Source: Owenia fusiformis
Lineage: Eukaryota
NCBI GenBank assembly: GCA_903813345.2
Contig: CAIIXF020000001.1
Span: 25,792,001-25,856,000, forward strand
Length of the DNA: 64,000 nucleotides
Direction: 5' to 3'
Shown here: positions 13,212 to 60,967 of the stretch, in pieces
Layout: each line of letters opens with the position of its first letter
Numbering within the stretch: position 1 is the stretch's first letter
Translations under genes and position numbers: made by a program
The notes under the pieces: model-generated
The model's input: the letters and a program-made list of their open reading frames with translations, nothing else
The model's database searches: none
What the model was told of the DNA's origin: nothing

Positions 13212-16200
13212 CTAGCAAACCTTTGCAAACTTTGGTCCCTTTCCTATTAAAATATCTCCATACGCTTCAGTCTGTTTCACGGTGATAGAGTCTGTCTTAC
13301 GTAGCACTAGTAGTGAGTAGAATTTAGAAGCTGCCTGTTTGCGGGAATTTTTCACTAACAATTCCTGGAAGGTAAAGTCCTTACGTTTTTGTAGTGAACG
13401 TTGGAGTGTGTATAACATCTGTTGACTACGTTTGTTCCACCTTTGTTCATCTTGCTCCTCAGCTGTCAGGTTCTCATCGTTCACTTCTTCCTCCTGAAAT
13501 AGAAAATAAAATATTTGTATATGTGATTAAGGAGAAATAAAGCTTTTTATTATTTAATGAATATAGCAACAATTGGATCTAACCTAGATCTTAGTGTTAA
13601 TTAAGGCATCAATAGACCATTTTGGAAGGAAATTCACACAATTTTAGCTGAAATAAAAACTCCAAAAGATGCATTTTTTCTATTGACTCCTGGCTCCATT
13701 TTCATATTCGAGTTGCCTCTAGTTTTCTTCGCGACTTGCACCGCACGCTATGATACAATAAATCATATATTCTTGAACTTACATCTTCCCTCTCTACAGG
13801 TTTCACAGATTCAGGCATTTCAAGTGGAGGCATTTCAACTGGCATCTCCAGCTCTGGTTGTGCAAAAGTCTGATCTGGTAGAGGTTCTGGTTCAGGCTCC
13901 TGGAGTGGTGTCTTAGAGCCAGACTTGTCTCCCCTGGTGGATCTCCTAGATGGTTCCTTCTCCTTTGTGGATGTATCTACTCGTGAAGTCTCCTCTGTTA
14001 TAGTGGACAGCTCAGGAATGACGGATGTATCTTCAACTGAAAGATTAATGATATTAAGGTTATTTTCCTATTGCAAATATGATGATCTAGAGGTTCACAA
14101 CTTTACTAATTCTATCTTTTTAAATCGCTTTTGAATTCAACACTATGACAAGTACCTATGTGTAATACACTATAATTACCTGGTGGTTGTTGTTCTTCTG
14201 TCTGTTCTCTGTTTATTTCAGGAGATTCCAGCTCTAACCTGTCTTCTTCTTGTTCTTGCTCATCTGTTAGAGGTCGCGTCACCAAATTACGACCAAACAA
14301 CTGAAATAACAACGTTATACATTTAACATTGGTTCAAATGGTGACTAAGACACCAAACACTGAAAATGAATCTCTGGAAAAAATAAAGTAAATCAAAAAA
14401 ATTTGGATGTTAAGTTCCAAGAAAAAAATCAATCTTAGTATTTGTGAAGTACCCTTTAATCCAAATATATTTACCCTAGACAGCCTCTTGGAGGGAATAC
14501 TGCGACCTGGGAGGGAGAATAGCTTCTCAACACCACCAGTCTCCTTCCAGTGCATCAGTTTCTTAGTGGGTGGTGCCAGATCTAAGGTAGTTACAATATC
14601 TGAGGTGTCAGACAGTTGCATCTTCATCGTGTCACTAGCAATACCCTTGGCTTCATCTACAATCAGCTTCCTTTTCCTTTTGGCCTTTCTTTCAGTTCCT
14701 ATTCAAGAAAACAAGGCATGACAAAATCTCACCATCTGCAAGTAGTTACTGTAAGTTGGAGACTATAACAACATGTTACCACCATAAAAAAACGGAAGCA
14801 ATATAATAAGACACTAGACAACATTGAGAACACTTTCAATGAGAAAATATTATTAGGCCATCACTTTGATTTTTGAATGAAAACAATCTCACCATAATAA
14901 AATTTCAGTCTAAGATAGTCTTGCAAATCCCCATATCTACTTGGTGGAGGACAAAGTATTAGCAAGATCAAGTTTCTTACATGGGTGAAAAATTAACATA
15001 TCGCTCCTATAAATGAAAACTTCACCTACCTGCTACTGTGGTTACATCTAGGGGTTCAAGGGCAAAGGCCTCCTCCTCATTAGGCACTAGGGTTGTTTGG
15101 TCTGGCTGCACAGAAGATGCATGACTTGGAGCCTCTGTCTCTATGGTGTGGCCAAAAGTATCATGCTCTTCTGAATCTAGAGGTTTTTCTGCAAATAGAA
15201 ATGATCTTCTTCATTAAATTTTTATAAAATGTACACTAGCAGTTCAATTTGTCACACATATTTGAGTCAATACAAATATGAAATAATCAGCAAAGAAAAT
15301 TCTTTACTATTTGAATTTAATTATTTTTGGAAAATACATGTACCCTACTAAGTGCTTCTGTTTCATTTAACATCAGGTCACTGATTTTGCTTTGACTATC
15401 TAACACTTTGTGGATGAACAAGATTTGCATGACTTATATCACATGATAAAACACCATTTGTGGACGTCACTTTGGAAATCTTTTGCCTAACTCTTATCAA
15501 ATTTCCTTCAGGTCTTTGGCAACCCTTGGTTGCAAAGATTCTGTTTTGACAGATAAACTGGTGTTTACCTGATGTTTCCTTTTCAAGTTCAGGTTGTTTA
15601 CTGGTTGATGGTTCTACATCTTGGGCCATAGGTACCTCTGGCATTGGAGCATCTTGGAACAGCCCCCCATCAAAGTCACCTACAAGCATTAAGAAAGCAA
15701 TGTAAACATTCTGTACTGTATCCACAATATGTCTGTATTCTCAAAGAAATACAATGACGAGTCAATACCTCACATTTGATTTTTGCCTAAGTTTAAATAT
15801 TTTCACAAACAATGGAACAGCTCAGCAAAACAGAACATTGAAGAGAATAGTCACATCTATTACTTATGGCTTTTTGCGCTTTTAAAAAACATAATTTCGC
15901 TTCACACATTTATGAAAAATATGATAAATTCATAAATCCTGGTTACATAATATCATGCCATATAGTTACATACCAAACAGTTCATGGTCCATGCCTCCAC
16001 CAAAGTTGTCATCATCGTCTGAACTTTCTGCGCCAGGTGCATCATCATCTGATTATATAACAGGGTAATGTGGAACATGTTAACAATAGAACAGTGGAGT
16101 GAACTTACTACATATTTGTTATTAACTAATTAATGTATTTAATTCTTAACTATGTGTGTACATCAATAATAACAGCTTATAGTAATGAAACATTAATAGA

Positions 16201-18676
16201 TTTAACACCAGTGTGGGAATATGGCCTGAGACTGGACAAATAACTGATCTTAACAAAAATTTGCCCAGAGTGTTTCAAAGTGGTATTTGGACAAAATTTA
16301 CAAGACACAAATTTCCCACACTGTTAGTTACACCATGCTCTCACATCATGTGATCAAAATATTATGGTTAATTTAAATAACTTTTGAATATATCTGTTAG
16401 ATTGTTATATTAATTGTAAATAAATAAAATGTCAAACTTGATAAAATATTTAGAACTATCAAAATTGAGCATATCACTCAAAAAATGTTGAATCTCCCCA
16501 TATAGCATTTTCAGTGAACTCCAATGATATTTCAGATCTATCCATAATGAGATTTTTTCATAAGTATCAAAGAGAGAGTCAATATTTGAGTTGGGTGATA
16601 CAAAATTATGATCAATTAAAGTTCTATTCATACCTAGCATATCTGCCCCACCCATACTTCCACCAAAACCATCGTCTTGTATAGGCGCTTGGAATGGATC
16701 CACTTCCATGGATTTCTCTGGAGGTGCTATGACAGAGGAATCATCTTTCTTATGTGAACTATCAAGAAGAATACTGGAAGATCCTGGTTTCTTGAAAAGG
16801 GAGTCATCTATGTGTTCATCACGCAAAAGCTCTCTGTCATCAAACCCAATGTCACCTACAATCAAATCAAGTTTTGTGAAATTACCAGCTTAAAATTACT
16901 CAAATTACTTCTACTTCAATTATTCTATCAAAATGACAAAATGGTTATACATTATCAGGCTAAGTTACACGTTTAAATTTGAGGCAAAAATTATCTTCAT
17001 CACCATCAGTTACTGTTTCTTAAACTTATCTTAATTAGGTAAGCAAAGGCATCAATCCTAACACGAAAGATGAAAAGTTTTGATTTAGAATAATTTATAT
17101 AGGACAAAGAACAGAATGACTCACCAAAACCATCATCATTGACTAGAGTAATATTTCCAAAGTCTTCCCTCATTGTAATTTCTTCTGGACGGCTCTGGTT
17201 AACTGAGAACTGTGCCTGCACATCTATATCACTAGAAATGGAGCAAATCAATTTGACTAAAACTTAAACTATTCTGAAACCTCGATTGTTCAGACATGTT
17301 ACTATACAATTATTTTTCAACTACTTATAATACTTTACTCAGAAAGCTACTAATTTCTTGGATATAATATTAAGAAATACATATGATATATAAGATACAA
17401 TGATACATATGATATCTAAGATAAAATGCAACTTACTTAAGATCTGCGAGTGTTGTGTCAAAGTCATGGAAGTTTTCAGGTAATGTGATAGCAGCAACTG
17501 CAGCTTCTCTATTGTCTTCAGGTAGATCAACTACACCTGGTCTGAACGCCATCTTAATCTTGACAAATGCCTCATTACAATCTGCTAGGAGATACTTGGC
17601 CTTTCTAGAGTAGATTCTCACCACACCAAGCAACAAGTGACCAGATGTACGTAAGGCCATCTTTACCTGGAGAGACAAGTAATTTATAATCAAAAGCAAG
17701 AATTAAATCATCAAAACCATTCTTCCAAAGATATATAATGTTGATCGATTTCTCCTGTGTTGCAACATACATATCATTATACTTGTAAATGCATGGTTGG
17801 ATCATAGCAAATTCGCTTCCTGATTTGACATTTTACTCCAAAAACTTGGTGGGCGGGAACAAATGATTGCTACCTCAAATCTTAACCAAAGAATCTCATG
17901 TATTTCAACCCTTCCATCGCATAGAATCAATGGAACTTACCACTCCGTTATTTTTTCATCATGTTTCCGATAGCGACAAACAATCTCAATGCTGATTGGT
18001 TGATATGAATCCATAGTGAAACATACCGAGATTCTCATGAGTCAAAAATGGTTATTTCGTTCAGTACAAAAAGCGGGAATAACCGGGGATTTGTTATAAG
18101 ACAAGATTGAGACAGATATCAGTCTAAAAAATGGTATTTTTGTTGCTACCTGAATATGGCAATTTGCTACTTGTTTTTGTAGACAGCACAGGAAAACATC
18201 ATGAAAAAAATATCATGCTTTCTAGAAGGTTTGAGAGATTTTATACCATGTTCAGATGAAAAGTTGAGACATAGTGATTCTAGAGGTATATCTGCATGGT
18301 ATGGTCAATGTTTCTACAAAAAGGAAAAAAAACATATTCTGTCAAAACGTCGAAACAAATGAGTACTTACAAGTCTCCTCCCCCCCGAAAATACTCTCAT
18401 AACGTCATTAACTTCAGTAAGTTTATGACTTATAAAAGAATGGGCTGTGGACGGTAGCAAATCCTTGCGTAAAAAAAGTTAAGGTCAGTCCCTGGCATGC
18501 ATTTAATTTTTTTGCAGATGATCAGTGCTTACCTTAGGCTCTATGATGGCTTCTACACTGCTCTCTACATTGGTTTCAAACACATGAGCCTTGGTCAGCT
18601 TTTTATCCCAATGAGCTGCCAGCCAGATTCTAGCCAATGGCCCCTTCTTACTCAGCACAAAATGAGCATAAAACAT
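13212..18676 (-). CDS. RAD21: Cohesin kleisin subunit RAD21 (Scc1), 11 coding exons, ~642 aa
   Basis: Exons (minus): 18533-18676, 17437-17666, 17125-17231, 16634-16855, 15974-16048, 15569-15679, 15030-15188, 14475-14698, 14180-14300, 13783-14036, 13212-13493. Total 1929 nt, phases consistent, GT-AG. Motifs: N-terminal [46 protein letters not shown], central [26 protein letters not shown]-terminal winged helix [14 protein letters not shown], and separase-type ExxR sites DRELLR, PEINR, KEPSR. Confidence 0.97.
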
Positions 18677-22584: not shown

Positions 22585-23321
22585 CTCAAGAAGACGTTTC
22601 TGAAATGCCTGATTACATCTGCAATCTTGCTGCATACACAATATGTTCAGATCTTATATAATATCGTTGATATCTTGAAAATATGTGAGCAAGTACTATC
22701 AATTTTGTCCAAGATGGCGTCACTCTGTGTTCCCGCTCAAGAAAATGTTCGAAAATGGCCGATTCACGTAAAAATAATTACGCACGGAATCAAGTACTAT
22801 GAATGAAAACTTGATATCGTTGCATAAGCAGGTATCATATGCCAATTATTTTTGAAGTTAATGGTGAAATAATATAATGCCCTGATATTTAATGTATAAA
22901 AGTATACAGATCGCTTCAACGTGAATCTATATGTTGACCTAGATATGTGTAACAGCGGATTGATATTTTGCAATCAAAACACAAACCAAACACATTTATT
23001 GATTAGCTCCAATTTCTCTCTATTTCTTTGTAAAAACGCCTAAAATTTGTTGAAGATGCATTGAATTATGATACTTATGAATCAAGTAATAATAAACGAA
23101 CTGCGAAATTGATCATATTGCAGGATATCACAAGAAATTGGCGTCTGAACAGCATGACCTTTAAAGGTCATCAAAGGGGTCAACATGTACTCTGACGTCA
23201 CGTGATACCAATATTTTCAAGATGGTGAGAGTAAAAAAAGCTTGAGTTGCAAATCTTTTTATAATTTGATGAATGTAGAAGGGATCCGCACTAAAATTGA
23301 TAACAGACAATCACATGAACA
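22585..23321. promoter_or_regulatory. Putative bidirectional promoter: RAD21 non-coding exon 1 (minus, donor at 22585) and the Bfr1-like gene (plus)
   Basis: Minus-strand donor GAG|GTAAGT at 22585 and an acceptor upstream of the RAD21 ATG exon at 18712. YY1-like CAAGATGGCG at 22710, CRE/E-box TGACGTCACGTGA at 23193-23205, and locally more CpG. The exon assignment is inferred. Confidence 0.5.
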
Positions 23322-26300
23322 ATGGCTAGTGCTGAAGAAAGCACTGAGGGAGAAGAAAAAGCTGTTGATAAAGAGGCGGTTGCTGCAGGTAAGTTTGTAA
23401 ACATGTGTCCTGATGAATCACAACTTTTGGCGAGAAATCATTTCTGGAATTTATTGTTTCATCATCAGTTTAGAATCAATGATTCAGTTAGGAGTCTTTC
23501 TAACTGAGCCCTGGATTTGTGCATTTATTCATCCATATTAGCTCTACTTCACTTGCATGTTTCTCTCAATTTTTATATCACAACTTTCTGTTTTTTGCTT
23601 TTCTGCCACTGGATTTCCAGTAGATGTCTAAGTTCAATAAGAATTTATGGTAGTTTACTGTAATTGACCCAACTTGTTTCCATTCTGTTGGTTTGAGTGA
23701 CCACAACATTGTAGGTGAACATCTATAGTTCCAAAGACCCTCTGATTATTGCAATCTGTGAACCCTTCCCAAGGCATTTGATAAGGGTCACGTAGGGCCG
23801 TGCCATTCGACCGGAATCGGTCCGAACCGCGGACTTTTGTTAAAATACCGGAATTCGGAATTTTAATATCATGTTCCGAAGGGTTTCGGAACAATATCGG
23901 ACCCTTACCTTAGTACTTGCTTTGAATCGTTAATATCCGTGACCATTGTTCCTCCAGTGATGTTTTCCTTCAAACTACATCCAATTTGCATGTGTATTAC
24001 TCGCATAAACAAAATAAATAGCGGAGAAATCAACAGAAATCAAGTTTTGTTTTACGAACTTTGACCTTCGGATTTCATTGGAAGTAGGAATCGACGGGGC
24101 GAAAATACTCATAGATAAATGAATAAATTTACTTTTCCATGACGTCTTACAATCTAACAGCGTTAATTAATTACATTTTAACTCTTACAATATATATATG
24201 CCGCCATTTTGTTCACTTTAACATTTGAATCGTTAATTTTGGTCTTACTTTCAAACGAAAAAGCAGTTTGAATTCAAATTTTGTAATCAAGACATCAAGA
24301 ACATCGAGAGAGCATCGATGTTGCATTCTGGGACCCAATCCTCCTTGGGTTTCACAGTTTTTCAATTTCGTTGATTTCGTTTCAAAACTTTTTCAATTAC
24401 GCATGCGCATTATGGTCAGAGCAGCCGGAAGTGAAAACAAGTAGAAAAAAGATCGAATTTTCTCTCTTTTTACAGATTTTAGAGTCTATTTCTTTCGTAA
24501 AAACATTCAAACTTGCTTGACAGGAAAGGTAAGTGTTAACCTGACAAACTTGGACGACGATATCGTCATGATCGCCGTCGAACTCACTCATACATAATTA
24601 TTTTCATTTGTGAACCAAAAGGGGTTCCGAAAGTTCCGATTCCGTGAGACCAAGTTCCGGTTCCGATTCCGAACCGTCCGAACCGGTTCCGGCACAGCCC
24701 TATTTAAAGGGTGTGTCTTACTCGAGTCTCTAGCTTACAGCTAGATGTAACTTCATTGATTTCGTATGTAATCGTATTTCGTATGTAAAAATGCTACACG
24801 CACCTAGAAATCATTTTTAATAAATTTTATAAATATATTTAAGAATATTAATTATATTTAGGATGAAGCATTGCATGTCTGGATTTAGATATTTCAAAAT
24901 TTCTTTTCGGAGTTCGACAGATGGTGAAATTTACTCGCTGTAGCTAAAAATGGCTTCCGGTTCCGAACGTGAATAAATGGAGGAAACTTTGAAATTATTC
25001 TCGCTAAAAGAAATCAAATATAACAATAGATTCAGACGGAGATGTGTGCTGATGTTTCTCAAATCTATACATAAAGGTATATTTCATATTATTATGCCGT
25101 ATTTACTGTGCGTGTGACACAATGATTTACAATATTTACAATACCAAGGCAGCTCAATCTTTCGACTCAAAGCCGGAATATAGAGAAGGCTTTGGACCGA
25201 AGTAAGGTGTGTCCATCTTACAAGAATATCTCAGAGTAATAGACATATTTTCTTGCTGAGAAAATTGCCATTGATATCTGTTATAAATTGGGAAATGTTT
25301 TGGCTGTGTGCATTGCAACTCCAAAATCTACGTTAAATTCAATTTTGAAAGCTTCTTTGCAATCGTCCAATGATCTCTATGATTTCCAAGAAAACCATTT
25401 TGACCTCCCCATTGTAAAATCAACATTTTTCTCTTAGCTCAAAATTTTAATTCCGGGTTAATGACTTAAAGAAGTTCCGTAATTAATGGCTTCCTAATTT
25501 GAGTCTCATGTTAATTATTTTCAGGTACACATAATTACTCATTCTATACATGGTCTAAGACATTCAGTTCGGCACTAAGAGTGTGTATAAATAGCATTAA
25601 TAAACATTTTACTTAAAATTAAAAAGGAGAAAATTCAGTGACCTACATTTTTTCCCTTTTGAAAAATAGGTCACTGAGATTTTCTTTATTTTCATACATT
25701 GAAGAAAAATATTCACCCTCTCATGATGTAGATTGTAGATACATAAATGTACTTTTTGTGCAAAACTGAAAGATGTACGTGTAAACCATGTATGGAATGA
25801 AGGTGCATTAATGACACCTTTATACCCTACCCTTTCGCGCCTTTTGAAAATACAACAGGAATTCAGAAAAGGTATTTTTTCAACCAATTATTTCTTATCG
25901 ATCAGTGTAATTAATTATTTTGTGACTATCCAGAAAATTATTAATTTTGTCATACAGTTGTGAAATTAACACCTGTAGAATAAGAGTTGTCAATTGGTAT
26001 ATAGATAAATTAAAATCACACATCCATTTGTAAAAAATGAAGGAATACCAAAATTTTCCCCACTCACTAATAATGCTCATGTTTAACTGTTTGATTAATT
26101 ATCCCATCGAACAAAGTTCGGAGGGCTATAACTCAAATACCGTTGGCCAGATTTTGTTCATATTTTGTACACATATACCCTATGGGGGTAGAAGTTCTGC
26201 TTTAAAGCCGATGGTTTAAAAATGGCGGCCATTTTAGTGCCGATTTCACAGTAATTTAGGTGCAATATGTAAAACTGTAATAGCTATATGTTTTAAATGT

Positions 26301-29300
26301 AAAAAAATTATATAGGACATTAGTAAAGCTAGAAATGTAGATATTAAAGAAGCACATGGCAGCCATCTTGAAAAATGGGGGCCTTTACTCGTTATTTTAC
26401 GATTTTTGCTGTAACTCGAAAAGTAGTGGAGCGCACATCATATAATCTTAAGAATTTGGTAAAGATTTCACGTTTCAAATAACTTTTAAAGAGGCATTTT
26501 GTTCTCAGGATCAAAAAATTGATATTTTATACATGTATTATTCAACATCAAGGTTTTACAAGGCTTTTAAGCATATTTATTAAAATAAGTTATAAATAAA
26601 TAAGTATCATCAGTTTGTGAAAATCTTTCTTTGCCCATGTTTCAAACCTGAGCTCGTTAGGGTTGGTGTCAGAACCAAATTGAAAAAAATTGTTGACATT
26701 TTGCCATCTTAATACATGTACTATGTGTAAGTTTTATTCATGATATGTTTTACCTCCAAACCAAAGGAATGAGAAGTGAAAATCAACCCACTAGTGGTCT
26801 GCAATGTGGCATCTATACAAGTCTTCAAATACGTTGGTTTTATTTCAGAATTCCGCCGTATGAAAGCTCCCAACAAGAAACGACTAGAGGATGATATAGA
26901 GGTACTGATGACCCAAATAAAGGAGAAAGAAAGTCAACTTGTATCCTTTTTAAGTGTTTGGTTTCATTTTTAATCTCTGGTTTTGGAAAACAATTGCTGC
27001 ATGAAGTGTAATGAAGAAACAATGAAATAAAGATAATTGAGATAAAGTTCGAAAACATTGAGGTATTTTATCTATAATATTTACAAACTCTTTTACAGAG
27101 CAAATTCCAATTCCTGTTTTTAATTTTTTTTATATTTATTTTATAACTTAAGTTGTTTGGTGGATTTATTCTCATATTAGGCTTAATAACACTTGCATGA
27201 AGTAACCAAAGGGCTTGGAATAGATAATGCCAAAAGGAGGAACAAATACTGACTGATTATTTTCATCATGAGGGAGAATTTGATAAAATGTATGCTGTTT
27301 GGTGTGACTCCATGGCATTCCTGTTGTTCTTTTTGGATATTATTATTGATTAAAGAAATCATTCTAACTGAGTCACATCTCCTTAACCCAAGAACCACAG
27401 AAAGCTAACAACAGCAAATCAGACGAAAGAAATCAGGAAGAAGGCCGTAATATACGCGCTGAAAAGGAGGCCAATAATGAAAGGCGAAAGAAGAAAGATG
27501 CCGAATTACGACAACTTGGAGTCACCATTAGATCACAGGTAAGTACAGTAAGCCAGTATGTACAGATCTATTTTCTTGAACAAAATAAAGTGTGAAGACA
27601 TGCATATATTTTCTTGGCTTTTTTCTGGAGTTTGCTATTAAATTCCCTCGAAACATCATGGCATTAAGGCTCAGCTGGAAAGTAACATTTGGGTAAAAAA
27701 TTGCTATACCTGCACATGTTATTTTCTGGTACAAAATAAAGTCTGGAGGCATGTATGTATTTCCTTGCTTTTTTCAGGAAAGTATCATTACACTGACCTA
27801 CTTTTAGTAAACCTGGAAACCAGGTCAATGGTAGCTCCTGTGTTGTCTGGAAACTTTGAAAGAAAATTTGGAAAAATAGAAAGTGTGAAATATCAGAATT
27901 TCCTGGAGTTCCCATTGAACTCCTACCAGAATGATACTTTCCTGAAAAAAGCAAGAAAATTGACACATGCCTTCATACTTTATTTTGTACCAGAAAATAA
28001 CATGTGCAGGTATAGCAATTTTTTACCAAAATGTTATTTTCCAGCTGTACCTGGATACATCAAAGATAATCTCTTTGTTTTGTTTTCTAGCTGGACTCTC
28101 TGGCTAAAGTGCAGGCTCAGTTGACATACAAAAGAGAAGACCGTATCAATGAGGCAATACGCAGACTGGAATACCAACTGAAAAACCAGAATTTCTCACT
28201 GAGGGAAGAAAAGAAGATTGTCAGTGAAATAGATAGTCTTAAGCGCTCAAAGAAGGCTTTGGTGTAAGAGCTATATATTTATATGCATTTATTGTTGTTC
28301 TTTAACATTTCAGCAATCAAAATTATTATATCATCCAAAATGTCAAACAGGAATAAGTGATTTTGAATTTTTTATTTCCATTTTTTCAGCCATAACAAAC
28401 TTTTATCTCTGTCAGACAAGAGCTCTCTCTCTTTCTTTCGTTTGGAAAAATTCGGGAATGTATGGAAAGTTATGAATGCATTGTTGATATTGTAACTTAT
28501 TCTGATGGTATTTAATCTGGGATCCATCTTCCCCCTCTATTAACCCTTCTGATGATGCATCAAGACTGAATAACCGAAGTACAACAGCAATTTTTCAATA
28601 GAGATCCAACAAAGGATTTAATGTATATATTATTGTACATTTCAGTCAGTACACTGCTATGAAGAGAGAGTTGGATTCTCTGAGGGACAAGCAGAGAAGA
28701 ATCAGGGAAGAGATAGGGGTAAGATAATTAATTAATTATGTATCTCGTGTGTAGTGGGCATACATGTACATGTATATGCAAAACTATGATATGATAGGAA
28801 GTTCCCTTGAACTTAAATATTCATTAGTTTTAGTCAATCAATTTTCATATTACCCTTACAAATGAACATGTCCTGTATAAGGTCTATGGGGATTCTACCC
28901 GGCATAGAAGTCACCTTTTCAAAGAAAGTTAAAATCTCAAAGTTGATAAACAATTTTTGAAACGTTATTTCTAGATGCAATTTTACATATTTTTTCACTT
29001 TGACTGAATTCTGAATATTTAATGCTGCAACTTAAGATTATTTCTACTTGCATCTAGTCCATTAATTATCACTTGACTAGCTTTTTATTTCATTTCAGCA
29101 CTACAGCAAAGCAGTGACGGGGCTGAAGAACAGGGAGGGGGCTATTAGGAACTCATTTAAAGCAATGCGAGAGCACAATGAGCAACTCAGGAAAGGTAAC
29201 AATCCAACTTAAAGTATTTACCTTAATAGATTGTAAAATGGCAAAGTTAAAGGGCACATCTTTTTGATAAAGTAACAGCTTAAAAAGTTCATGATGTCAG

Positions 29301-32300
29301 AGAAATGTAATTTTGTAATGTTGATTTAGATTATACATAATACGTATTTATGAGAGTACAGTTGCTTTTAATTCTCAATTTCATTTCCGGTCTACAATTG
29401 TTTAACAAATTAATGTGTAACAAAAGATCATGGGTCGTCTCAGATAAATATTTTGAAGTTCAATTGAATCTATCTGTTTCAGAAATCGATGCCTTATTTG
29501 ATGAGAAACGAAAAATGATTGCAGACTTCAAAAAGTATGAGAATGAATATTATAATTGCAAACGTATAACTAAGGAAGTTCAGTCAAAGAAACGAGAAGA
29601 AGAAAAACGTGCTCAATTGGCTGCCAAACAAAAGGAAATGTAAGTTTTTTTTTACATCTTTTGTAGGAAAATAACTTTTGTTATAACTACAAAATGTGAG
29701 TACTTAGTACTATAGTAAAAAATACTAAAGTGAGAGAAACACTATTAGCTCATGTTACAGGGTTCTCATCAGGAAATTTTTAGACCCCGGATTTTCAGCG
29801 GATTGAGACTACATTTTTTGCGGTATCGCGACTACTTCTCCTCATTTGAGATCAGAGATATCCTATTCGTATACTTTTCAACATACTTCTTAAGATTATC
29901 TTGCTTTTTTAATCCCAATATTTATTTCTAAAAGGTTTCTGACTGACTATTTCTTGTTTGTATCCAGTTTTATGTATTTTCTCAAGAGTTTTACCGCAAA
30001 TAATGTGACAAAAATATAAAATTAGACTCTGGAGCAAGAGGGTTTTAAGACAATAGACTCTGGAGAATCTCCGGAGTCTAAAAGCCTAATGAGAACCCTG
30101 TGTTATATGTAGGTCACATAATAAGTATTTAAAGACATAACTTTAATGTTTTGTTCCAGTGCTGAAATAGAAGCCCTAAGGGAGCCCTATGAGCAGGAGA
30201 AACAACTATGTACAACTTTGATAGTTTATTTACAACGGTTTCTGTCTCAGGAGACAACGCAGGACAACCAACAAGATACTCCCTCAACACCAGGTTAGTA
30301 CAGACCCACCACTCTTGTTTGGTCAACTTTATTTCTCTTGACAATATGTTAGTACACAACCACCACTCTTGTTTGGTCAACTTTATATCTCTTGACAATA
30401 TGTTAGTACACATTACACAACCACCACTCTTGTTTGGTCAACTTTATTTCTCTTGACAATATGTTAGTAAACAACCACCACTCTTGTTTGGTCAACTTTA
30501 TATCTCTTGACAATATGTTAGTAAACAACTACCACTCTTGTTTGGTCAACTTTATATCTCCGAATCTTGACAATATGTTAGTACACAACCACCACTGTTG
30601 TTTGGTCAACTTTATTTCTCTTGACAGTATGTTAGTACACAACCGCCACTCTTGTTTGGTCAACTTTATTTCTGATGACAATATGTTTGTACACAACCAC
30701 CACTCTTGTTTGGTCAACTTTATATCTCTTGACAATATGTTTGTACACAACCACCACTCTTGTTTGGTCAACTTTATATCTCTTGACAATATGTTTGTAC
30801 ACAACAACCACTCTTGTTTGGTCAACTTTATATCTCTTGACAATATGTTTGTACACAACCACCACTCTTGTTTGGTCAACTTTATATCTATTGACAATAT
30901 GTTAGTGTTCTACATTCACCCAGTGTGAAAACAAATCATATTTTATAGCTAGTAAATGCATTCAACTCTTGTGACACATTTTACTCTGTTTGAATTAATT
31001 TTCTTTCCCATTTTAATTAATTGTAAAACTGAGTCATTGTTGAACATTTGTGTACACAAAGAGCAAAATAATTGTTATTCATTAGGACTTTGCTTTCAAA
31101 ATGGTAACCATGTCAGCCATCATGCTGAAGAAAATATTTGTTGTTGATCCAGATGCAGTAAAGGCAGTTGAAAAGGAGGCTGGTATGTTTGTGTTGCGTA
31201 GGAAGAAAAGTGATGAAGATGATGTGTTCTGGGGAGCTGGACGTGGCAAAGCTGGCAAACGAAACAAGAAAGACAAGAAAAAGATAAGTGTGGTATGTGT
31301 CTTGTATGAATTTTCAAGGTAGTTCTGCAATTTTAAAAAAAGTTGAAAATATATTTCTAGGAAAATTTCATTTTACCATTCAAACAAAAGATTCTGACTT
31401 TGAATGTATTCAATTTAAAAAAATTATCTTTATGTGGATCTATCTACCTTAAAGTAATTGTGTGTGCATTTGGGGAAATTTCTTTTACTTACTCGCTTTG
31501 ATTTCAAAGACACTGTCTAGATTTCAGATCATTCCACGACTGAAACAATATACTTTAATTTCTTTGAAAATGTATGTTTAATAATAGAACACTTGATCAT
31601 TCCAGCCAAAGCATATTCAGCACAGTCCAGAGATATTTGCTCAGTTTGATGCATTGAACCTCACAGCTCCATCGACCATGACTGAAGTACAGATCTCAAT
31701 TGAACAGTTACAAGCCAGAAAGGTCAGTTGCAAATTTTGCAAATAAGTGGATTTATGAATAGAAAGGAAATGTAAATAATCAAACATTATCATTAACTGT
31801 TTTTTGTAAACATAGTTTATTCTATATACAAATGCATATGTATTTGAACATTTCTCTTCCTTTGTTGATTGGTTGCAGTGCTTATTCCAATATTAGCCGG
31901 TCTGTATCAAATGTTTCCAGTTATTTTGTGTGCTCAGGTAGAACATTAGATACACAAATACATGAATATTGCTCAACACACATTTTGTATGTTGATATTG
32001 TTGTAAAATACTTGCAGGCATATTACCAGAATGCTCCAGCTATTGTGCCATCACAATTCTCCCCAACAAGTCAGGTGTCTACTGATTGGACAATCAGTGA
32101 AGCAACATCGCACACTGGAAGTCTTGTTAGCGTAACTACACTAGATAGCACAACATCTGATGGTTCCGTCATCTCAGACGTCGACCTAGAGTCAACTCTC
32201 AAACAGCAGGACTTTCAAAATATTTTGGTAAGTGAAACTATAGACGATGCTGTGGAAGAAAGGTCCATATCCCCTATTGAAAAAGACATTAATAAAGATA

Positions 32301-32785
32301 ATGTCGGAAAAGGCACCACAGAGGGACCAGGTGTTAATATGGAGAAGGTTCCAAGTACAACTCTTGTCATGCGGAGTATAAGTAGTGAGAATGATGGATC
32401 AAGTATATGTAGCCTTGACAACCATGTTAACAATGCCCATGATGCAACAGACACTGAGGAATCAGGTATCGAGCTAGATGAATTCACGCACGATCTACCC
32501 AAAACTAATAAACAATGTCCCAGAGATAAACTAAAATTGCATATACTTAAAGACAGTAATACTATCAACAACGCACATGCAGGAAATGAAGTGGATGCTG
32601 ATAGTGCATTAAATAATATGAACAACTGTAATGGCTATATAGATGATGCTGAAAACAAGGATGATATAGCTGATACCTGTAATAAAGACACTGTAGCCAA
32701 TGAGAAAGTGACTCAATGTGAAGATTCTAGTGATAAGTTTGACACAGAGAATCTTGTTAATGGTGATGTTGTTGAGGAGTCATAG
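23322..32785 (+). CDS. Coiled-coil protein, Bfr1 / proton-pump-interactor (PPI)-like, with acidic low-complexity tail; 11 exons, ~651 aa
   Basis: Exons: 23322-23388, 26849-26940, 27401-27538, 28091-28263, 28646-28718, 29099-29195, 29483-29639, 30160-30293, 31153-31292, 31606-31722, 32018-32785. Total 1956 nt, open frame, GT-AG. Motifs: APNKKRLEDDIEVL, INEAIRRLEYQLKNQNFSLREEKKIVSEIDSLKRSKK, PYEQEKQLCTTLIVYL, RKKSDEDDVFWGAGRGKAGKRNKK, HSPEIFAQFDALNLTAPSTMTEVQISIEQLQARKAYY. The exon 3 acceptor is the least certain boundary. Confidence 0.85.
23793..24702. mobile_element. hAT-like MITE in intron 1 of the Bfr1-like gene
   Basis: TIR TAGGGCCGTGCC / GGCACAGCCCTA, with many CGGAA/TTCCG subterminal repeats at both ends. 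TSD not preserved. Confidence 0.7.
26098..26433 (-). mobile_element. Partial copy (3' part, inverted) of the HINE family at 40992 and 51462
   Basis: ATCCCATCGAACAAAGTTCGGAGGG...AAAATGGCGGCCATTTT...GGCAGCCATCTTGAAAAATGG matches the reverse complement of 52380-52750. The GACG microsatellite is deleted. Confidence 0.75.
27666..28053. repeat. Inverted repeat (MITE-like, ~120-bp arms) filling most of intron 3 of the Bfr1-like gene
   Basis: 27672-27789 is the near-identical reverse complement of 27930-28047. Confidence 0.75.
29758..30100. mobile_element. hAT-like MITE with 5-bp TSD
   Basis: TIR CAGGGTTCTCATCAGG / CCTAATGAGAACCCTG, with TGTTA duplicated on both sides. Confidence 0.8.
30294..30906 (+). 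repeat. 54-bp minisatellite, ~11 units, starting at the donor of intron 8
   Basis: Unit GTTAGTACACAACCACCACTCTTGTTTGGTCAACTTTATATCTCTTGACAATAT repeated head-to-tail with no spacers. Confidence 0.95.
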
Positions 32786-33189
32786 CGTAAAGCTCATTCT
32801 ATGTCTCACTAATTTTAGTGGCTTGTTTGAAATACTGTATGAGGGGGGACTGTAACAAATATATCAAGGACCTATTAATTGAACTGTTTTTTTAGTTAAA
32901 AAAACAAGCCATTACATAATCAAAATATTGATCTGCCATTTTGAATTATAATCAACCAACACCAATTGGTATTCACTTCTAATGTAACAATTCATTACTT
33001 CAGGGAATTGGCGCACATCGCACACATCAATGAATTATATTCCGATTTATCTAATAACATGTACCCTTAACACACAAATTTTATGTAACTCCAAATCATC
33101 TGGTGATATTCACAGGACCTCCTCTTATTAAGAACAATATTCAATAACTAACTCTCATTCTCAGATATTCTGAAATTTAAAAAATCATG

Positions 33190-34239
33190 ACAGCCTGCAA
33201 TGTGCACCATGAATAGACATTGGTACATATCTCTTTTCAAGCTTAAATGAAGGACCCACGGTCCTATGCTCACACAGTTTGGAACCTTCAGAGGAATTTA
33301 TATCCTGACTTTCAAACAAAAATATTGATTTGGATTTGTAGTCTCGAACTTTGAGAAACTTAGATAGCATAGTTATGTGACCTAGTTTGATGACCTTTGA
33401 CCTTGAAAATTTTACTTATTCAGAGCTCAGTAAGGTCTTTTGTGATTAAGCTGACCAAAATTTACATCAAAAAATCAATTTGAAAAATCAACTTTTTTGA
33501 CCTTTCGAAGGTCACTGAAGGTCAAGTAAAGGTGAAATCCTAAAACTAATGTCAGATTTGAACTCCTGGCAACTTGTAGATGATTTTCAAAAAAAAATTT
33601 GGTCAAATTGAAGCAAGTTGAAAAATAACTTATTTTTACTGTTTTTTGACGTCAAATATTTCAAAAACGGTAAAAATTTGATGCTGACATATATCGAGAA
33701 ATATGTAGGGAATGCTTAAATCTATTAATGATGTAATTTATTGCAGGAAATGATCAAGTATAAGGCAAACTTTAAGAATCTTGTCAATCACAAAACCTGC
33801 CATTGACTTTATACATGAGAAAGTTTCCTGAAAATGACTAGTTTTTTTCAAATTTTATAGAGTAAGCACCAAAAACCGTAATTCCAAGAGCTTTGAAATC
33901 TTCAGAGGACATAGGTTGCATATACACCAACTACTAAAAGTTATTTGAAAGTTCTACTTCAACAAAGTGTCTAGTATTTACAGAAAATTTGAATTTTTGA
34001 CGTCAAAATCCGCAATTTCTCGGAAACCGGGCGAACTTGGGAAATCATGATGATAGGTCAAATAGGCATTATGGATATGCATAAAATGAATGTGGATATG
34101 ACTCAATCCGAATAGCAGTTTTAATTTGTGCAGCCAATGGTGACGGACGGACGGACCAACGGACGGACGGACGGACGGACCAACGGACGGACGGACGGAC
34201 GCCTGGTCAATCCCATAGGCTCACTGTGTGAGCCAAAAA
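33190..34239 (+). mobile_element. Helentron-type (HINE/pearl-like) element, second family
   Basis: TGACCTTTGACC motifs, (GACG)n microsatellite at 34142-34201, and 3' hairpin GGCTCACTGTGTGAGCC followed by an A-run. A degenerate 3' end recurs at ~54690-54775. The 5' boundary is approximate. Confidence 0.6.
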
Positions 34240-38733: not shown

Positions 38734-41700
38734 CTATGTTTGTGTTATTATTGGTATAGATGTTTGGAGCTTTTGCAAGGTACCTAGCGAATCTTTTGTA
38801 AGGTTCACAATAGACCTAAAATGCAAAAAACAAATTGTTTAATCATTCCTTTAAGTCAATACATTTGAAATCTAAACTCAATAAAATTGTGCTAAAATTC
38901 AACAGAGGCTAGAATCAAAGGGTGGTTGATTAGCTATTGGTTATCATTATTATCATTGGTCATTTTTGAAGGCTAATATTGTTTGATACATTGACCAACT
39001 AACCTGAACAATTTTAACTTCTCTATGCTTTCTTCAAATTCAATAGCTTTCTTTTGTCCTCGTAGAATAATCTGAAAAAATAAAACAACAATTAAATGGG
39101 GATTCTTTGATTAAATTCATGTTCAATATTTTCTTACACTTTGAACAAATGAAAAACAAGATTTATCGTGACTTGCCCAGATTTCCAGATGCCCATCAGC
39201 ATAAGAAATTGTAAAGCTATAAGCAATTTACTTTTGGGCATCCATAACATCATTGCATTGATCATTTTAAAGCCAAAATTCATTTGTGATTCGAACTTTA
39301 CCTCATTGGGTAGATCTGCCAGTCTGGCTGCATTAAAGCCATAACTCTTAGGACAAGCGCCACCTATAAACTTGTAGAGGAAGGTGATGGTCTCCTGACT
39401 TGGGTCATTCTCATCTTCATTCTCCACCATACACGCCTGGAAAACAGACTTCATGTTCATTAAATATACACATTACAAGAGCAGTATTGATTTTTTTTTA
39501 AATGTTAATGAACCTGTCCATGTATAGCTCACACTAAAACCCCATGTCCTGTCACCATGCTCATCACTACCGGTGTAAAAGATGAAGAAATTGTTTCAAC
39601 TTACCATGTGCCCTGTCCTGACATTGGGGTCATGTGAGAACTCCTCCACCAGAGAGTGGTAGTGGGTGCTGAACAATGTGCGACATTTAACATTCTGAGA
39701 AAGTTCCTGCACCACTGCACATGCTATTGCTGTACCATCATATGTTGCTGTGCCTCGACCAAGTTCATCCATCAGAACCAGGCTATGTGGAGTTACATGC
39801 TGCAGGATGGCCGATGTTTCACTCAGTTCCACGAAAAATGTACTTTCACCTGCAAAGCATAAGTTTAAGTTCAATACAAATACAAGACATTTAAACAATG
39901 TATGTATGTATCTTTTATTCCCGATTTCAAATCGGATTTCATATAAACTAATTACATTGTTAGATTAATACAATAAACATAAAACATAAACAAGGTCACA
40001 ACATATTTACAATCTTTAAAAGTAATATAAAAATTTCAGATTACAAGGTCTAGATCTTCTGCAAGTTTATGCAAATAAGGGTACGAGACTAATCCCTGAG
40101 TCTGATATCACTATATGAATGTATCTCAGGATGAGCTCTAAGTTATGTATCTCAAATGACTCCGAGGCAGGACGCAACGTCAATAATGAGTTTATTCCTC
40201 ATGTGATTGTACTTATTACAGTCGATTAGCATGTGATTTATGGCATCCTTATAGAAATTGCCACATCTATTGCAAAGAAGGTTGGAGTCATTGACGGGCA
40301 TGGCTAAAACTTTGACTGCTGTGAGAATATACGGAAGTAGATAATTCCGTTTTCTGGCTAAGTTCCAAAGATTATGGGCTCTCAAAACAGAAATGGAAAT
40401 TCTGATGTCATTGCGTTGAGATTCACTTTGAACTAGGAAGCGTTGTCTGACTACATATTTGCAAATGCGTTTCCACAAGATATTATTTGGAAAATAACCG
40501 TTATCTAGATATTGAATCAGGTATTGTTCCAATTCGTAGGTTTTCAGAATGTTTGAAATGTCGGCGACAAATCCTGCCTGCCGGTGATTTCCGCCGTAAA
40601 GCAAATTTGCTCTAAACAGAAAGATGTCCTTTGTCAACGTCAGCTGTTGCATGTTGCAAAGCAGACCAAGAAACGACAGCTTTCGTAGGTCAAGAGTGAA
40701 CTGGACTGGTAACTGGACTGGTTTTTGTAGTACACTTTGATAATGCAGAACAGTAAAAATAGCAGGTCCTGGTAAAATGATAATTTGATATGAACTGTTC
40801 ATTTGTTTAAAAATCCCATAAATTCAAGTAATGTGTGAAGAGTACACTAAATAAAATGTACTTACCTGACATAATCCGATCACTGGCACCCAGGCGCGTG
40901 AACACTCGATCTACAGGGGTCAGCTTACACTTCTCAGCAGGCACATAGCATCCCTACAACATAATTTATCAGAATATTTTAACTTAGAACCAGAACAACG
41001 GCAACGCCAAAGCGTAGCGAATCCCATCGAACAGAAATGGCTGGCATTTTTACAAACAAAATATATAGCAAATATCATAAAATAACACACATAAGAAAGG
41101 CCACCATTTTCAAAATGGTTGCTCACTAGCCAAGTTGTCATCAGAAGAAGTAATATGCTTTTAAGTAGCCACATATGAAATTTTTAAAAATCGCACACAC
41201 GTACATGTAAATGGTGGCCATTTTTATAAAATGGCCGCCTTCTACCCAAAATGTCATAAGACAGTATGCAATCCTTACGAGTATTCACATTTCAAATATA
41301 AACAAAATCGCTCTATAACTTCTTGAGTTATCATAAAAAATGTAAATTAACACACATAAAAATGGTGGCCATTTTTCAAAATTGCCGACTACTCCCCAAA
41401 GTTTTATTAGACAACGTGCCATGCTTAAAGTATTCACAAATCAAATATGAACAAAATTGCTCCAATACTTTTCGAGTTATAATAAAAAATGAAAAATGAC
41501 AGCCATTTTTTTAAAATGGCCGCCTACTACCCAAAATGTCATTAGACATTGTGCCATGCTTAAAGTATTCACATACAAAATATGAACAAAATCGCTACAC
41601 TTCTTTTTGAGTACAGTAAAAAATGTTAAACACACGTAAAAATGGCGGCCATTTTTCAAAATGGCCGCATACTACCCAAATTTTATTAGACATTGTGCCA

Positions 41701-44700
41701 TGCTTAAAGTATTCACATACCAAATATGAACAAAATCGCTCCACTACTTTTCCAGTTACAGCAAAAATCGTAAAATGACGTGCGAAGGCAGCCATTTTTC
41801 AAGATGGCTGCCATGTATTTCTTCTATATTTACATTTCTAGCTTAAACAATGTTCTATATAACTTTTTTGCATTTAAAACATATTGCTATTACAGTTTTA
41901 TATGCAGAACCTAAATTACTGTAAAATCAGCACTAAAATGGCCGCCATTTTTAAATGAGCGGCCATTTTGAAAATTGGCTTTCGAGCAGAACTTCTACCC
42001 TCATAGGGTATATGTGTACAAAATCGGGCCAACGGTATTTGAGTTATTGCTCGGACGGACGGACGGACGGACGGACAGACGGACGTAGGTACGGATGTAC
42101 ATACGGACGGACGGACGGAGGCGTTCCCTATATCCCTCCGAACTTCGTTCGATGGGATAATAATGCAGCTTTCAACACTAATCAATGATAACTTAGTCCA
42201 TTTTTCTGTATTTCTCTTCAAAAAGGGAACACTAATGGAAAAAGATAAAATTCTTGATATAGATAAAATAGATGTAAAAACGAATAAAGTTAGAGCAAAT
42301 GAATTTGAATGTTAGAAAATACTGATTGCCTCACCAGCTGAGCCATAATGACAACGAGGCCAACTTGACGCATCAATGTCGACTTTCCACCCATATTTGG
42401 TCCAGTTACTATGACAACACTGCTATGAGATTGATCTTCACCTTCAGTCTTCATAGCATTTTCCTACAACATAATGTTGCTTATAACCATTAAGATTGAT
42501 TAGATCTGGTCAAAATAAGAGAATTTAGAAATTACTATGCCTTATTTGGTCAATAAAAAATAAAATAAATTTATAGTGCATACATCTCTGATTCCAATCA
42601 CTGTATCATTAGGGATATAATCTCCGCCAGAGAATGTTCTTGAGACACAGGGATGTCTGGCGTCACGAATCTCCAAGAATGAGGTTGTGGCATCATCAGG
42701 GAGGATGAGCTCTGGCCGACACATAGCACCATCTGCTGACTGGCTGTAGCGGGAGATATTGAGTAGGACATCAAGGGTGGCGAGACATTGCACCGCAGCC
42801 TCCCAGTCTTTGTACCTGGACATGATAAAGGAGAATGTCTTTAATGGTGAATGAGTGAGAATCATACATGAATGAGGCTGAACTTTTTACCTCATCACTT
42901 TTGCTGTAAATAGTTAAATACTCATTGAGATGTCAACAGACAGCATTGTTTTGTTCAGACTTTAGATATCGTGACAGGTGCAAAAACATACACTTAATAG
43001 TGTTGCATGTACTTGCAGTATCATACAGTGCATACTGTAGATATTCTTGGGCAATACAGTAAAGCAAGTACATGTACTTTTAAAGGTGGATCAATCAAAT
43101 AACTCAACTTACTTTTTGTCAAAGTGCCAGAAGAGCAGTCTCATAGTGTCTGTGAGGGCTCTCTCCTTATCTAACTCCGTCCTCTCTAGTTGTTTTAGAA
43201 GATCTTCTATCTCTGTGGTTCGGTAACGTCGACATCCCTTCTTCTGTGACTGGAGTTCGAAATCATCTGGGACACGATCACGCAGGCTGTCTGGGACCTC
43301 AATCTGACAGCGATTCTTGCCTTTGCCCCAGTACACAAGTGTCTATTGAGAAAACATGTTTGTTGTAAATTAAAGAGATAAAATGACAGTACTTTGATTA
43401 AAAGGTTGAATCGATGAATGATACACCTTGCATAAATCATCTTCATATTAAGAAGTTTGATTCTATCATAAGATGTCAAATTAGTACCACCTTGCCAGGC
43501 CAGTTCTAGGGGTTTTATTGCTAGTTTAGAAGGCGTTCATTTGACTATATCGACCTAAGAAATGTGTGACGTCATAGTGGTGGTCCATATGGCCCGGTCT
43601 AGAATATATTCTGGACCGGCAATTTTCCCCGGGAAATTAGATATCGTTCAATGCGTAAGCTTTTCTTGCTGTTTCAGTCCTGGTCGTTAACGGTGGTAAT
43701 AATACTAATAACGTCATTTCTGCGAGCAATATAGTGAAATATTGGACCTTGGGCCTTCGGCTCTCGGTCCAATATTTCACTATATTGCCCTTAGAAATGA
43801 CGTTATTGTACGAATAGTAATTTGTGCAAACATTTGCTTTTGGTCAAAAACTATTTTCATGAACTTAATGGAACAGAATAAAAGTCAAGTTTTTAAAACT
43901 TCAAGAAAATACATATAATGTTTAAAAGTACTTACATTACATTTCAAACGTTTTCTTTGTTGCTTGAGATAGTCATCCAGCTCCTCTTCTATGCTATTAA
44001 TGTGCTCAATGGCCTGGTCATAGTCAGGGTTGCACCCTGGTAAGGGCTTTATGACCCCGCTCTGTTTGGCCTTGGTATGGTCAAATGCACGCTAAAAATC
44101 ATTCAATCAAAAAATCAAAGTACATCTATTTATACCTTATTTATTATCATTTTCAGGAGTACTTAGTCAATACATGTGTAACCATTTCAAAATATTATCA
44201 AATCTTTATTTCAATGAAAATAAATGAAATATAAAGGTTTTTTTACAAAATTATAAGACTTAAATCTTGATTTATATCATAGCAGCTGAATAAACCTTTA
44301 AACATTTAGTATTTTGACAATTCTTCACACTACTGAGTATTAATCGATATATGTCTTACATCTGTTGCAGCTAGATCCTTCCTAAGGTCAGGGAATCTTC
44401 CAAGTGGCACAGAGTCATCACTGGCAAAACTAACAGTTTGTTGCAAAAGCTTTGATCTAAAAACACATGACATATGGCATAGATTTAAGAACACATGACA
44501 CATGGGAATATAGAGGAAAAATGAAAACAACAGAAGTGTAGAATGAATGTCTTTTTAATAGTACATGTATTTTTACTTAGAAACTGAAATCCTAAATTGT
44601 CTATTCAACCTAAGATTTGTATGAGGGATTTTTTCAAAGGAATTCATTTCCTATTTTTCCATCAATTATAGGAAGGCTATCTGTAATGTTTTATGATTTT

Positions 44701-60297: not shown

Positions 60298-60967
60298 GGC
60301 GAAGACAGCTATTTCTGGGAGGTTGATGATGTCAAATGGATAATACACATCTTTATCATGATTTTTGAGATTTGGCAGTCAAACAGGCCTGAGATAACAC
60401 CCGAAAGGATCTAGAAAAGCATATTTCATACCTCAATCATTTGTAGTGTTATCTTATGGCAAGATAATACTGCAAATGTAAGCACTGCAAAATTAGTAAA
60501 ATGATCCGTGCTTCACCTTCTGACCAATCACATTGCGGGACGCATGCGCAGTATCCATGTAGAAATGAAATTCTACATGGATCTTTTGTAGCCTGATATT
60601 TCTTCCAACAACCCTGACCCTTTGGCAAAAGGTAAATGTGGTAATGTGGTTGTATATGGCTTGTTTAACATCATTTCAAATGTGGTATTCTTGAATTTGT
60701 TGAGTTCCTTATACACATATGTTATAACTTAAAAGCTATCTGTCCTATCAAACAGCAGTCAGTACCATAATCAAACTGCCCCCATAAATGTGAGGGATGA
60801 TTTCTATACCTACATGTATAATGTATATAGGCTAGTTGAATTTACATTCAGATTTGTTGGGTCAAATGTCAAAAATAAGAAACGCAAACCAATCACATAC
60901 ATTTATTTATTTACATGTACAGTAACATGTATGTTATATTGCAGATTCTCCTGAGAAAACAAACAAG

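Follow-up and report, generated by a model that had tools for sequence, protein, structure and literature searches.

Work on Bfr1 has been confined almost entirely to budding yeast, with one study of its family in trypanosomes. Published accounts describe yeast Bfr1 as cross-linked to RNA at residues that lie in the first two coiled coils and in the segment joining them, as arriving at the endoplasmic reticulum (ER) riding on translated mRNAs, as associated with polysomes and, in an RNA-dependent way, with Scp160/vigilin, with which it has targets in common, and as required for making certain ER proteins (PMC6859859, PMC8783092, PMC11571813). The cross-linked residues are given as R38, H79, K138, F211, Y225, and F239 (PMC6859859), and its partner Scp160 is described as an orthologue of mammalian vigilin (PMC8783092). 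The mechanism of Bfr1 is still described as unclear (PMC6770257). The trypanosome protein, ERBP1 of Trypanosoma brucei, is reported to belong to the Bfr1 family over its whole length, to be associated with the ER, to bind ribosomal-protein mRNAs, and to differ from Bfr1 in its targets and in its stress-granule behaviour (PMC7025706). Here we describe a gene in a 64,000-nucleotide stretch of the genome of the annelid Owenia fusiformis (contig CAIIXF020000001.1, positions 25,792,001 to 25,856,000; hereafter the window). The gene lies at window positions 23322-32785 on the + strand, and its 651-residue product, P0001, very probably belongs to the Bfr1 family (IPR039604/PTHR31027), as judged from profile matches. 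We put the probability at roughly 0.8 that this gene is the Owenia orthologue of the pan-eukaryotic Bfr1 family.

A first-pass annotation of the window, made from the DNA letters, had proposed an intact 11-exon gene at this place and a kinship of its product with fungal Bfr1. The exact search for an exon chain from the ATG at 23322 returned an intact GT-AG gene with the same exon count and coordinates, and its spliced product is identical, letter for letter, to a public 651-residue Owenia fusiformis "unnamed protein product", which was retrieved with the exon-7 fragment as the query (one protein, 100% identity). Public annotation already includes the gene model for P0001. In the stop-to-stop frames of window 22.5-33.5 kb the gene is broken into fragments, just as had been remarked for the open-reading-frame track.

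The proposed kinship held up well in profile-profile comparison. We aligned a profile of 17 named animals to a nine-row fungal-type clade, which holds the chytrid protein P0102 and the protein P0159, and obtained an hhalign probability of 100 and an E-value of 6.7e-45 over 379 collinear columns (25-408 against 11-424). The same profile matched a nine-row clade holding the streptophyte alga Mesostigma at an E-value of 1.2e-41. In the controls, E-values were 0.011 and 0.0011 with reversed templates and 0.18-0.75 in five shuffles of the columns. A core profile of lophotrochozoans only reached P0159 at 3e-30 and the chytrid P0102, a true fungal member in the same clade, at 2.4e-39 (Z = 1e6). Even by BLASTP, P0001 aligned to the 470-residue P0159, which we take to resemble yeast Bfr1 closely, with 22% identity over 416 columns, collinear over residues 25-401, at an E-value of 1e-10. 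In the ESM Atlas, residues 1-400 of P0001 had as their top cluster "putative Nuclear segregation protein BFR1" (0.96), and the top three clusters for P0159 were all named Bfr1 and came from Ascomycota and Basidiomycota (0.98, 0.98, and 0.97). For a related cluster, the Atlas also mentions PF30554 (Pfam 38.1), on the portion that aligns.

The first-pass annotation had singled out the non-coiled C-terminal blocks as the part on which the kinship would stand or fall. We therefore used a profile of 10 lophotrochozoans restricted to residues 273-405, with Z set to 1e6. It matched the stramenopile Mallomonas at an E-value of 6.4e-18, the holozoan protist Syssomonas at 2.1e-15, Mesostigma at 3.1e-14, the chytrid Quaeritorhiza at 3.8e-14, the dinoflagellate Symbiodinium at 5.6e-10, and P0159 at 7e-8, with values between 1e-6 and 4e-13 for the nine-row clade around the chytrid. 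None of the 1242 reversed or shuffled decoys matched at E<1e-3. At the same threshold, the C-terminal region matched 173 of 197 family proteins, the N-terminal third 81, and the tail 24, counts that are not independent because the 197 targets were chosen by a profile containing lophotrochozoans, and in which only the contrast with the decoys and between the regions is informative. Judged from these alignments, the first ~405 residues of P0001 are homologous end to end both to the fungal-type clade named Bfr1 in the Atlas and to chytrid, streptophyte-algal, stramenopile, dinoflagellate, and holozoan-protist proteins.

All five sequence blocks that had been listed for the protein are present in the predicted order, at P0001 residues ~25-35, 122-153, 275-290, 325-345, and 363-400; in three of the five, the spacing is off by one or two residues relative to the patterns as written. 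Across 139 family sequences, conservation is 90% or more at P30, E139, L149, G321, F371, and P379, and this family-wide conservation indicates that the blocks exceed chance. The AlphaFold2 model of P0001, computed from the alignment of the same 139 sequences, has a mean predicted local distance difference test score (pLDDT) of 70.7, with 292 residues at 90 or above. It predicts helices at 32-109, 115-131, 136-272, and 277-295, disorder at 300-357 and from ~410 to the end, and a confident small module at 360-401. The core is thus predicted, very confidently, to consist of the antiparallel helices 32-109, 115-131, and 136-272, capped by the helix 277-295. This core is basic (isoelectric point, pI, 9.6; net charge +16), and the linker at residues 322-359, predicted to be disordered, forms a K/R/G patch with 14 K+R against 5 D+E (pI 10.6). 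No RNA-binding domain was found in P0001 by the Pfam scan. The modelled protein has the architecture described for the Bfr1 family, being helix-rich with three helical or coiled-coil segments and without a canonical RNA-binding domain.

Several points weigh against assignment to Bfr1, beginning with the dependence of the 197 targets on lophotrochozoan sequences. The Bfr1 label of the fungal-type clade derives from automatic Atlas names and from the chytrid, and Bfr1 of Saccharomyces cerevisiae itself lies outside the alignments. Much of the protein is coiled-coil-like, so that profile scores are inflated, and even the reversed controls reached E-values of 0.001-0.01. The local Pfam copy, which has no Bfr1 model, gave no family above the cut-off for single exons or for the whole of P0001, and likewise none for eight of its relatives; the best sub-threshold scores of P0001 were CCDC138_cc with 17.4 bits (cut-off 27.1) and DUF1664 with 14.5 (cut-off 34.6). 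Searches among solved structures return only generic antiparallel coiled coils. By sequence, P0001 had only two matches in the Protein Data Bank (PDB), both insignificant (E-values of 0.22 and 0.63). By fold, Foldseek found nothing in the PDB at E<=0.001, the best being SMC and Rad50 coiled coils, and the wide VIA-align search gave generic helical hairpins with a best Z-score of 12.8, in a range common for long helices. Moreover, the differences between ERBP1 and Bfr1 imply that the function may have drifted in animals.

The relatives of P0001 are widely distributed. A word-index search with residues 1-400 returned mollusc and annelid proteins with 35-47% identity (E-values from 1e-49 to 1e-85), together with weak matches to two Pristionchus nematodes and one metagenome protein. 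We built a profile (A1) from 14 of these matches and scored it against 1.84 billion representative proteins, of which 1772 matched at E<=1e-3; at the stricter thresholds of E<=1e-10 and E<=1e-30 there were 1007 and 250. The best 150 of the 1772 are mostly 440-650 residues long and match in a single stretch over profile positions ~1-440. Organism names were looked up for 30 of these 150, and 14 were named. Nine are animals (Elysia, Trichoplax, Ptychodera flava, Caligus, Homarus, Chamberlinius, Cyprideis, Gnathostoma, and Paramacrobiotus) and five are not (Syssomonas, the chytrid Quaeritorhiza (P0102), Mesostigma, Mallomonas, and Symbiodinium (P0068)). According to these matches, orthologues are present in Placozoa, Mollusca, Annelida, Arthropoda, Tardigrada, Nematoda, and Hemichordata. 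There was no vertebrate or insect among the 14 named organisms of the 30 matches looked up out of the 150 listed, and with so few matches named this lack is not evidence of absence. In a FastTree phylogeny of 139 members, a quick and unrooted method, all 17 named animals fall in one 61-row clade with a support of 99, and all five named non-animals fall opposite it. A word-index search with the 139-sequence profile (A2) gave 14 matches, none of them a new relative, the four weakest being SMC-type and other proteins from outside the family.

It had been stated that no characterised animal or vertebrate member was known. In the literature on Bfr1 homologues and orthologues in metazoa, human, and elegans, represented in part by titles and abstract openings, we likewise found no characterised animal Bfr1. 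The statement should nevertheless be qualified, for the PANTHER family PTHR31027 is described as already including predicted nematode and protist homologues (PMC8783092), consistent with the nematode and protist members found here. The orthologues carry automatic names that contradict one another (P0006, P0008, P0012, P0014, and P0090): "centromere-associated protein E-like", "Lebercilin domain-containing", "DNA ligase 1-like", "calponin homology domain-containing", and "stress response protein NST1-like". For P0006 and P0014, the two that were scanned, there is no passing Pfam match behind the name. The copy in Trichoplax sp. H2 bears a name taken from a Swiss-Prot entry of Schizosaccharomyces pombe, "Uncharacterized protein C458.02c", which is presumably the fission-yeast Bfr1 homologue; a literature search for SPCC458.02c or C458.02c found no paper. 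The family DUF7121 (PF23435), precomputed on the relatives P0014/P0015 and P0016, was considered and rejected, as hmmscan gave no match for P0001 at E<=10 and none for P0014 and P0016 at E<=1.

The C-terminal tail had been taken for a lineage-specific addition by one large terminal exon. The acidic, S/T/D/N-rich disordered tail is indeed added by a single terminal exon, exon 11, which encodes residues 397-651, the last 255 residues of the protein. Residues 406-651 have a pI of 4.14 and a net charge of -33, with 50 D+E, 53 S+T, and 23 N. A profile of this tail matches 24 of the 197 family proteins, all in the lophotrochozoan-type clade, which indicates that the tail sequence is lineage-restricted. 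The feature itself is more widespread. A rough measure anchored on motifs shows acidic disordered tails, 100-380 residues long, in Ptychodera (216 residues, pI 4.3), a tardigrade (268 residues, pI 4.3), a millipede, and molluscs, and short acidic ends are found in Trichoplax and the fungal-type proteins. By this comparison, such tails are common among the animal proteins and not peculiar to the Owenia lineage.

What the Owenia protein does could be anticipated from its described relatives. By analogy with Bfr1 and ERBP1, we lean slightly towards mRNA binding on ER-associated polysomes. P0001 might bind mRNA through its basic helical surface and the K/R linker, without a canonical RNA-binding domain, and could ride on translating messenger ribonucleoproteins (mRNPs) at the cytosolic face of the ER. 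There it might modulate the translation or storage of ER mRNPs, possibly together with vigilin. The conserved C-terminal module, which is under the widest constraint, may be a protein-protein or ribosome contact. The acidic S/T-rich tail could be regulatory or partner-binding, for example as a phospho-regulated or nucleic-acid-mimicking autoinhibitor.

The protein could also belong to the Bfr1 family by descent and serve another role in animals, such as a cytoskeletal, centrosomal, or ciliary scaffold with the tail as its working part. We consider this unlikely. All of the automatic names listed above other than "DNA ligase 1-like" would suit such a role, but they are mutually inconsistent and no such Pfam family passes, CCDC138_cc coming closest at 17.4 against 27.1. 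The SMC, dynein-stalk, and axonemal coiled coils returned by the fold searches would suit it too, but these matches remain within the range common for long helices (Z <= 12.8). A change of role would also fit with animal tails that are much longer than the fungal-type ones, and with ERBP1, which illustrates that targets vary between lineages (PMC7025706). However, the conserved parts are exactly those common to fungi and protists, which argues for a conserved core activity.

The plant proton pump interactor PPI1 (At4g27500) deserves separate consideration because the first-pass annotation had noted a resemblance in the middle block. PPI1 is described as a protein of ~600 residues with three predicted coiled coils and a C-terminal transmembrane domain, located mainly at the ER (PMC11394911). 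If P0001 were of this type, it would be tail-anchored in the ER and would act as a regulator, binding a P-type proton pump and stimulating it. An Atlas cluster named "Proton pump-interactor 1" (PPI_C, PPI_helical; Pfam 38.1) does appear at 0.89, a value that counts as a lead, for both P0001 (rank 25) and P0159 (rank 28), and a streptophyte cluster reaches 0.95 with P0001 (TM 0.42 by structure). The Mesostigma clade, by its profile scores, is clearly homologous to the animal proteins. The tail of P0001, however, is acidic and disordered and lacks a hydrophobic segment of the kind described for PPI1; the maximum 19-residue Kyte-Doolittle mean over the whole protein is 0.56. Animals are not known to have a plasma-membrane H+-ATPase of the plant and fungal type. 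A hydrophobic segment is present in only 3 of 192 family proteins. Among them, P0111 (429 residues) carries a strongly hydrophobic 19-residue segment at 408-426, its very C-terminus, and the Symbiodinium protein P0068 (666 residues) one that starts at residue 489; these two late segments are a point in favour of a PPI1-type anchor and imply that membrane-anchored forms of the Bfr1-type family exist outside land plants. A literature search joining Bfr1 and proton pump interactor found no paper. The PPI1 link of the Owenia protein stands as a lead, and a PPI1-type function for it is very improbable. Least probable of all is a generic coiled-coil protein without specific kinship, whose matches would arise from heptad periodicity and K/E-rich composition, as the lack of a Pfam family, the insignificant PDB sequence matches, the generic structural matches, and the not fully silent reversed-profile controls (E-values of 0.0011-0.011) might suggest, but which the tests reject, with scores of ~350 for the real hhalign comparisons against 30-39 for the reversed ones, E-values of 1e-8 to 1e-18 to distant eukaryotes from the non-coiled C-terminal region alone with 0/1242 decoys, and an alignment that is collinear over ~380 columns and in which P, G, H, and F positions are conserved.

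The splicing of the gene was examined with raw stranded RNA-seq runs (X17 and X18) and contig sets (X1 and X6) mapped to window 23000-33300. Nine of the ten introns were seen in X17 and X18 as GT..AG joints that coincide with the predicted positions once the stated cut offsets are taken into account, with 9-33 reads per run. In the joint reads the first mate is always on the - strand and never on the + strand, which, given the usual stranded libraries, indicates a + strand mRNA. None of the RNA-seq joints listed corresponds to the tenth intron, 29639/30160 (68 further joints lie beyond that listing). This intron is implied by a 2892-nucleotide X1 transcript contig, which has 327 letters between its exon 4 and exon 8 pieces, exactly the sum of exons 5, 6, and 7 (73+97+157). 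The junctions of the first-pass model are therefore borne out by the transcripts. The same X1 contig extends ~236 nucleotides further upstream of 23000 and ends at 33176, giving a 5' untranslated region (UTR) of >320 nucleotides and a 3' UTR of ~390 nucleotides.

Along the + strand, the 5' UTR occupies at least 23000..23321; it is covered by the contiguous X1 contig piece 23000-23385 (record positions 2271-2656 of 2892), and read depth there is confined to the - first-mate track. Two codons 5' of the ATG, at 23316-23318, there is an in-frame TGA. The coding part of exon 1 (23322..23388) contains the ATG and an acidic N-terminus, residues 1-22, and matches P0001 exactly; its joint 23388/26849 (GT..AG) has 18+13 reads. 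Exon 2 (26849..26940; joint 26940/27401, 23+17 reads) encodes the conserved K-x-P-N-K-K block and the beginning of the first long helix, and exon 3 (27401..27538; joint 27538/28091, 29+33 reads) continues this helix as part of 32-109. The best-conserved helical block is encoded by exon 4 (28091..28263; joint 28263/28646, 29+11 reads), with the motif L-x-Y-K ... E-E-K-K-I-V-x-E-I-D-x-L-K-R-S-K-K, in which E139, L149, and R151 are invariant or nearly so. The long central helix 136-272 is carried by exon 5 (28646..28718; joint 28718/29099, 12+24 reads), exon 6 (29099..29195; joint 29195/29483, 18+21 reads), and exon 7 (29483..29639), which encodes its K/R/E-rich end and whose junction to exon 8 follows from the X1 contig arithmetic above. 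At 28718, the last base of exon 5 and the third base of a Gly codon, the reads carry A where the assembly has G, a synonymous difference.

Exon 8 (30160..30293; joint 30293/31153, 24+9 reads) encodes the E-P-Y..E...C..L-I-x-Y-L block, in which P275 and L286 are invariant in animals, the helix 277-295, and the beginning of the disordered linker. Exon 9 (31153..31292; joint 31292/31606, 24+16 reads) encodes the G-x-F-V-L-R-R-K-K block and the basic K/R/G linker. The C-terminal module, H-x-P..F.QF..L.L.AP....E...IEQL..RK, lies in exon 10 (31606..31722; joint 31722/32018, 10+16 reads), with H363, F371, L374, and P379 conserved and pLDDT values of 93-95; this module, along with the blocks before it, is what matches the furthest relatives. 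The coding part of exon 11 (32018..32785) contains the end of the last helix, the ~245-residue acidic disordered tail, and the stop codon, with a read depth of 16-26x on the - first-mate track. Within the tail, an in-frame TTG insertion after 32753 relative to the assembly is present in 9/14 reads of X17 and 8/8 reads of X18. The 3' UTR occupies 32786..33176, up to the end of the transcript contig (X1 piece 32016-33176). A candidate twelfth exon at 36482 was rejected, as straight reading from 32018 yields the same C-terminus and stop.

Three introns contain repeats. In intron 1, a repeated element at 26096-26439 has an RNA depth of ~440x against ~6x in neighbouring exons, with loose ends running into (CCGT)n. 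Similar peptide stretches in open frames at 41916-42311 (-) and 52528-53178 (-) point to at least three copies of this element in the window. Intron 3 holds an inverted repeat with arms of 123 nucleotides at 27667-27789 and 27930-28052, 92% complementary and 140 nucleotides apart, which looks like a foldback or MITE-type (miniature inverted-repeat transposable element) element; very high summed contig depth there (X1 and X6) suggests many genomic or transcriptomic copies. Intron 8 opens with a 54-base-pair minisatellite of 11.1 copies with 90% matches (30294-30906). It starts at the first intron base, directly after exon 8 (30293), so that each unit opens with a GT-containing donor-like sequence, and it gives rise to long spurious open frames at 30407-30928 (+) and 30529-30909 (-). 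RNA depth is zero over 30568-30911.

Elsewhere in the window, an exon-like open frame at 39599-39964 on the - strand matches MutS domain V (PF00488; E-value 4.4e-30) and, from this match, is part of a MutS-family mismatch-repair gene, downstream and on the opposite strand. A reverse-transcriptase fragment at 59808-60308 (-) (RVT_1, E-value 7e-8) is probably a retroelement remnant. Several long open frames of 121-159 residues at 13702-16889 (-) resemble exons of another, upstream gene, and the two that were searched gave no Pfam family. Rfam gave no match at the gathering score over the whole window.

In summary, what is new here is the recognition of annelid and, more broadly, invertebrate members of the known Bfr1 family. 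The gain is incremental, as PANTHER/InterPro already covers the family, nematode and protist members included, and the Owenia gene model is public. Expressed invertebrate orthologues nevertheless offer animal systems for testing the Bfr1-vigilin relationship and the control of ER-localised translation, and misleading public names ("DNA ligase 1-like", "CENP-E-like", "NST1-like", and "Lebercilin domain") could be replaced by one family name. A wider scenario is possible, although we regard it as doubtful. The Bfr1 family might descend from the last eukaryotic common ancestor and persist as a single-copy, expressed gene in most invertebrate phyla (Placozoa, Lophotrochozoa, Ecdysozoa, and, among deuterostomes, at least the hemichordate Ptychodera), having gained a long acidic S/T-rich tail in animals and acting as an unrecognised partner of vigilin on ER-bound mRNPs, with loss or divergence beyond recognition in vertebrates and insects, and with PPI1, P0111, and P0068 as membrane-tethered offshoots.

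Compared with the described systems, plant PPI1 (PF28572 PPI_helical/PF27883 PPI_C) is set apart by its reported C-terminal transmembrane domain (PMC11394911), which the Owenia protein lacks. ERBP1 (Tb927.10.14150), compared by description, is predominantly alpha-helical, ER-associated, and mRNA-binding, and its very acidic C-terminus parallels the Owenia tail, although the acidic end is short, with 19 D/E in the last 33 residues as against ~245 residues in Owenia; its partner ERBP2 is reported to be kinetoplastid-specific (PMC7025706). [quoted passage not shown] The fungal-type members share the block order and the collinear full-length profile match with the Owenia protein, but at 447-577 residues they lack the ~245-residue acidic disordered tail of the 651-residue P0001. 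The uncharacterised animal orthologues (for example Liolophura LOC135463348, Ptychodera flava XP_070533697.1, and Trichoplax TRIADDRAFT_58379) differ from Owenia in the length and sequence of the tail, and their public names are inconsistent and mostly spurious. Yet they have the same blocks and, in most, an acidic tail, and the core of the Owenia protein is 35-47% identical to those of its mollusc and annelid orthologues.

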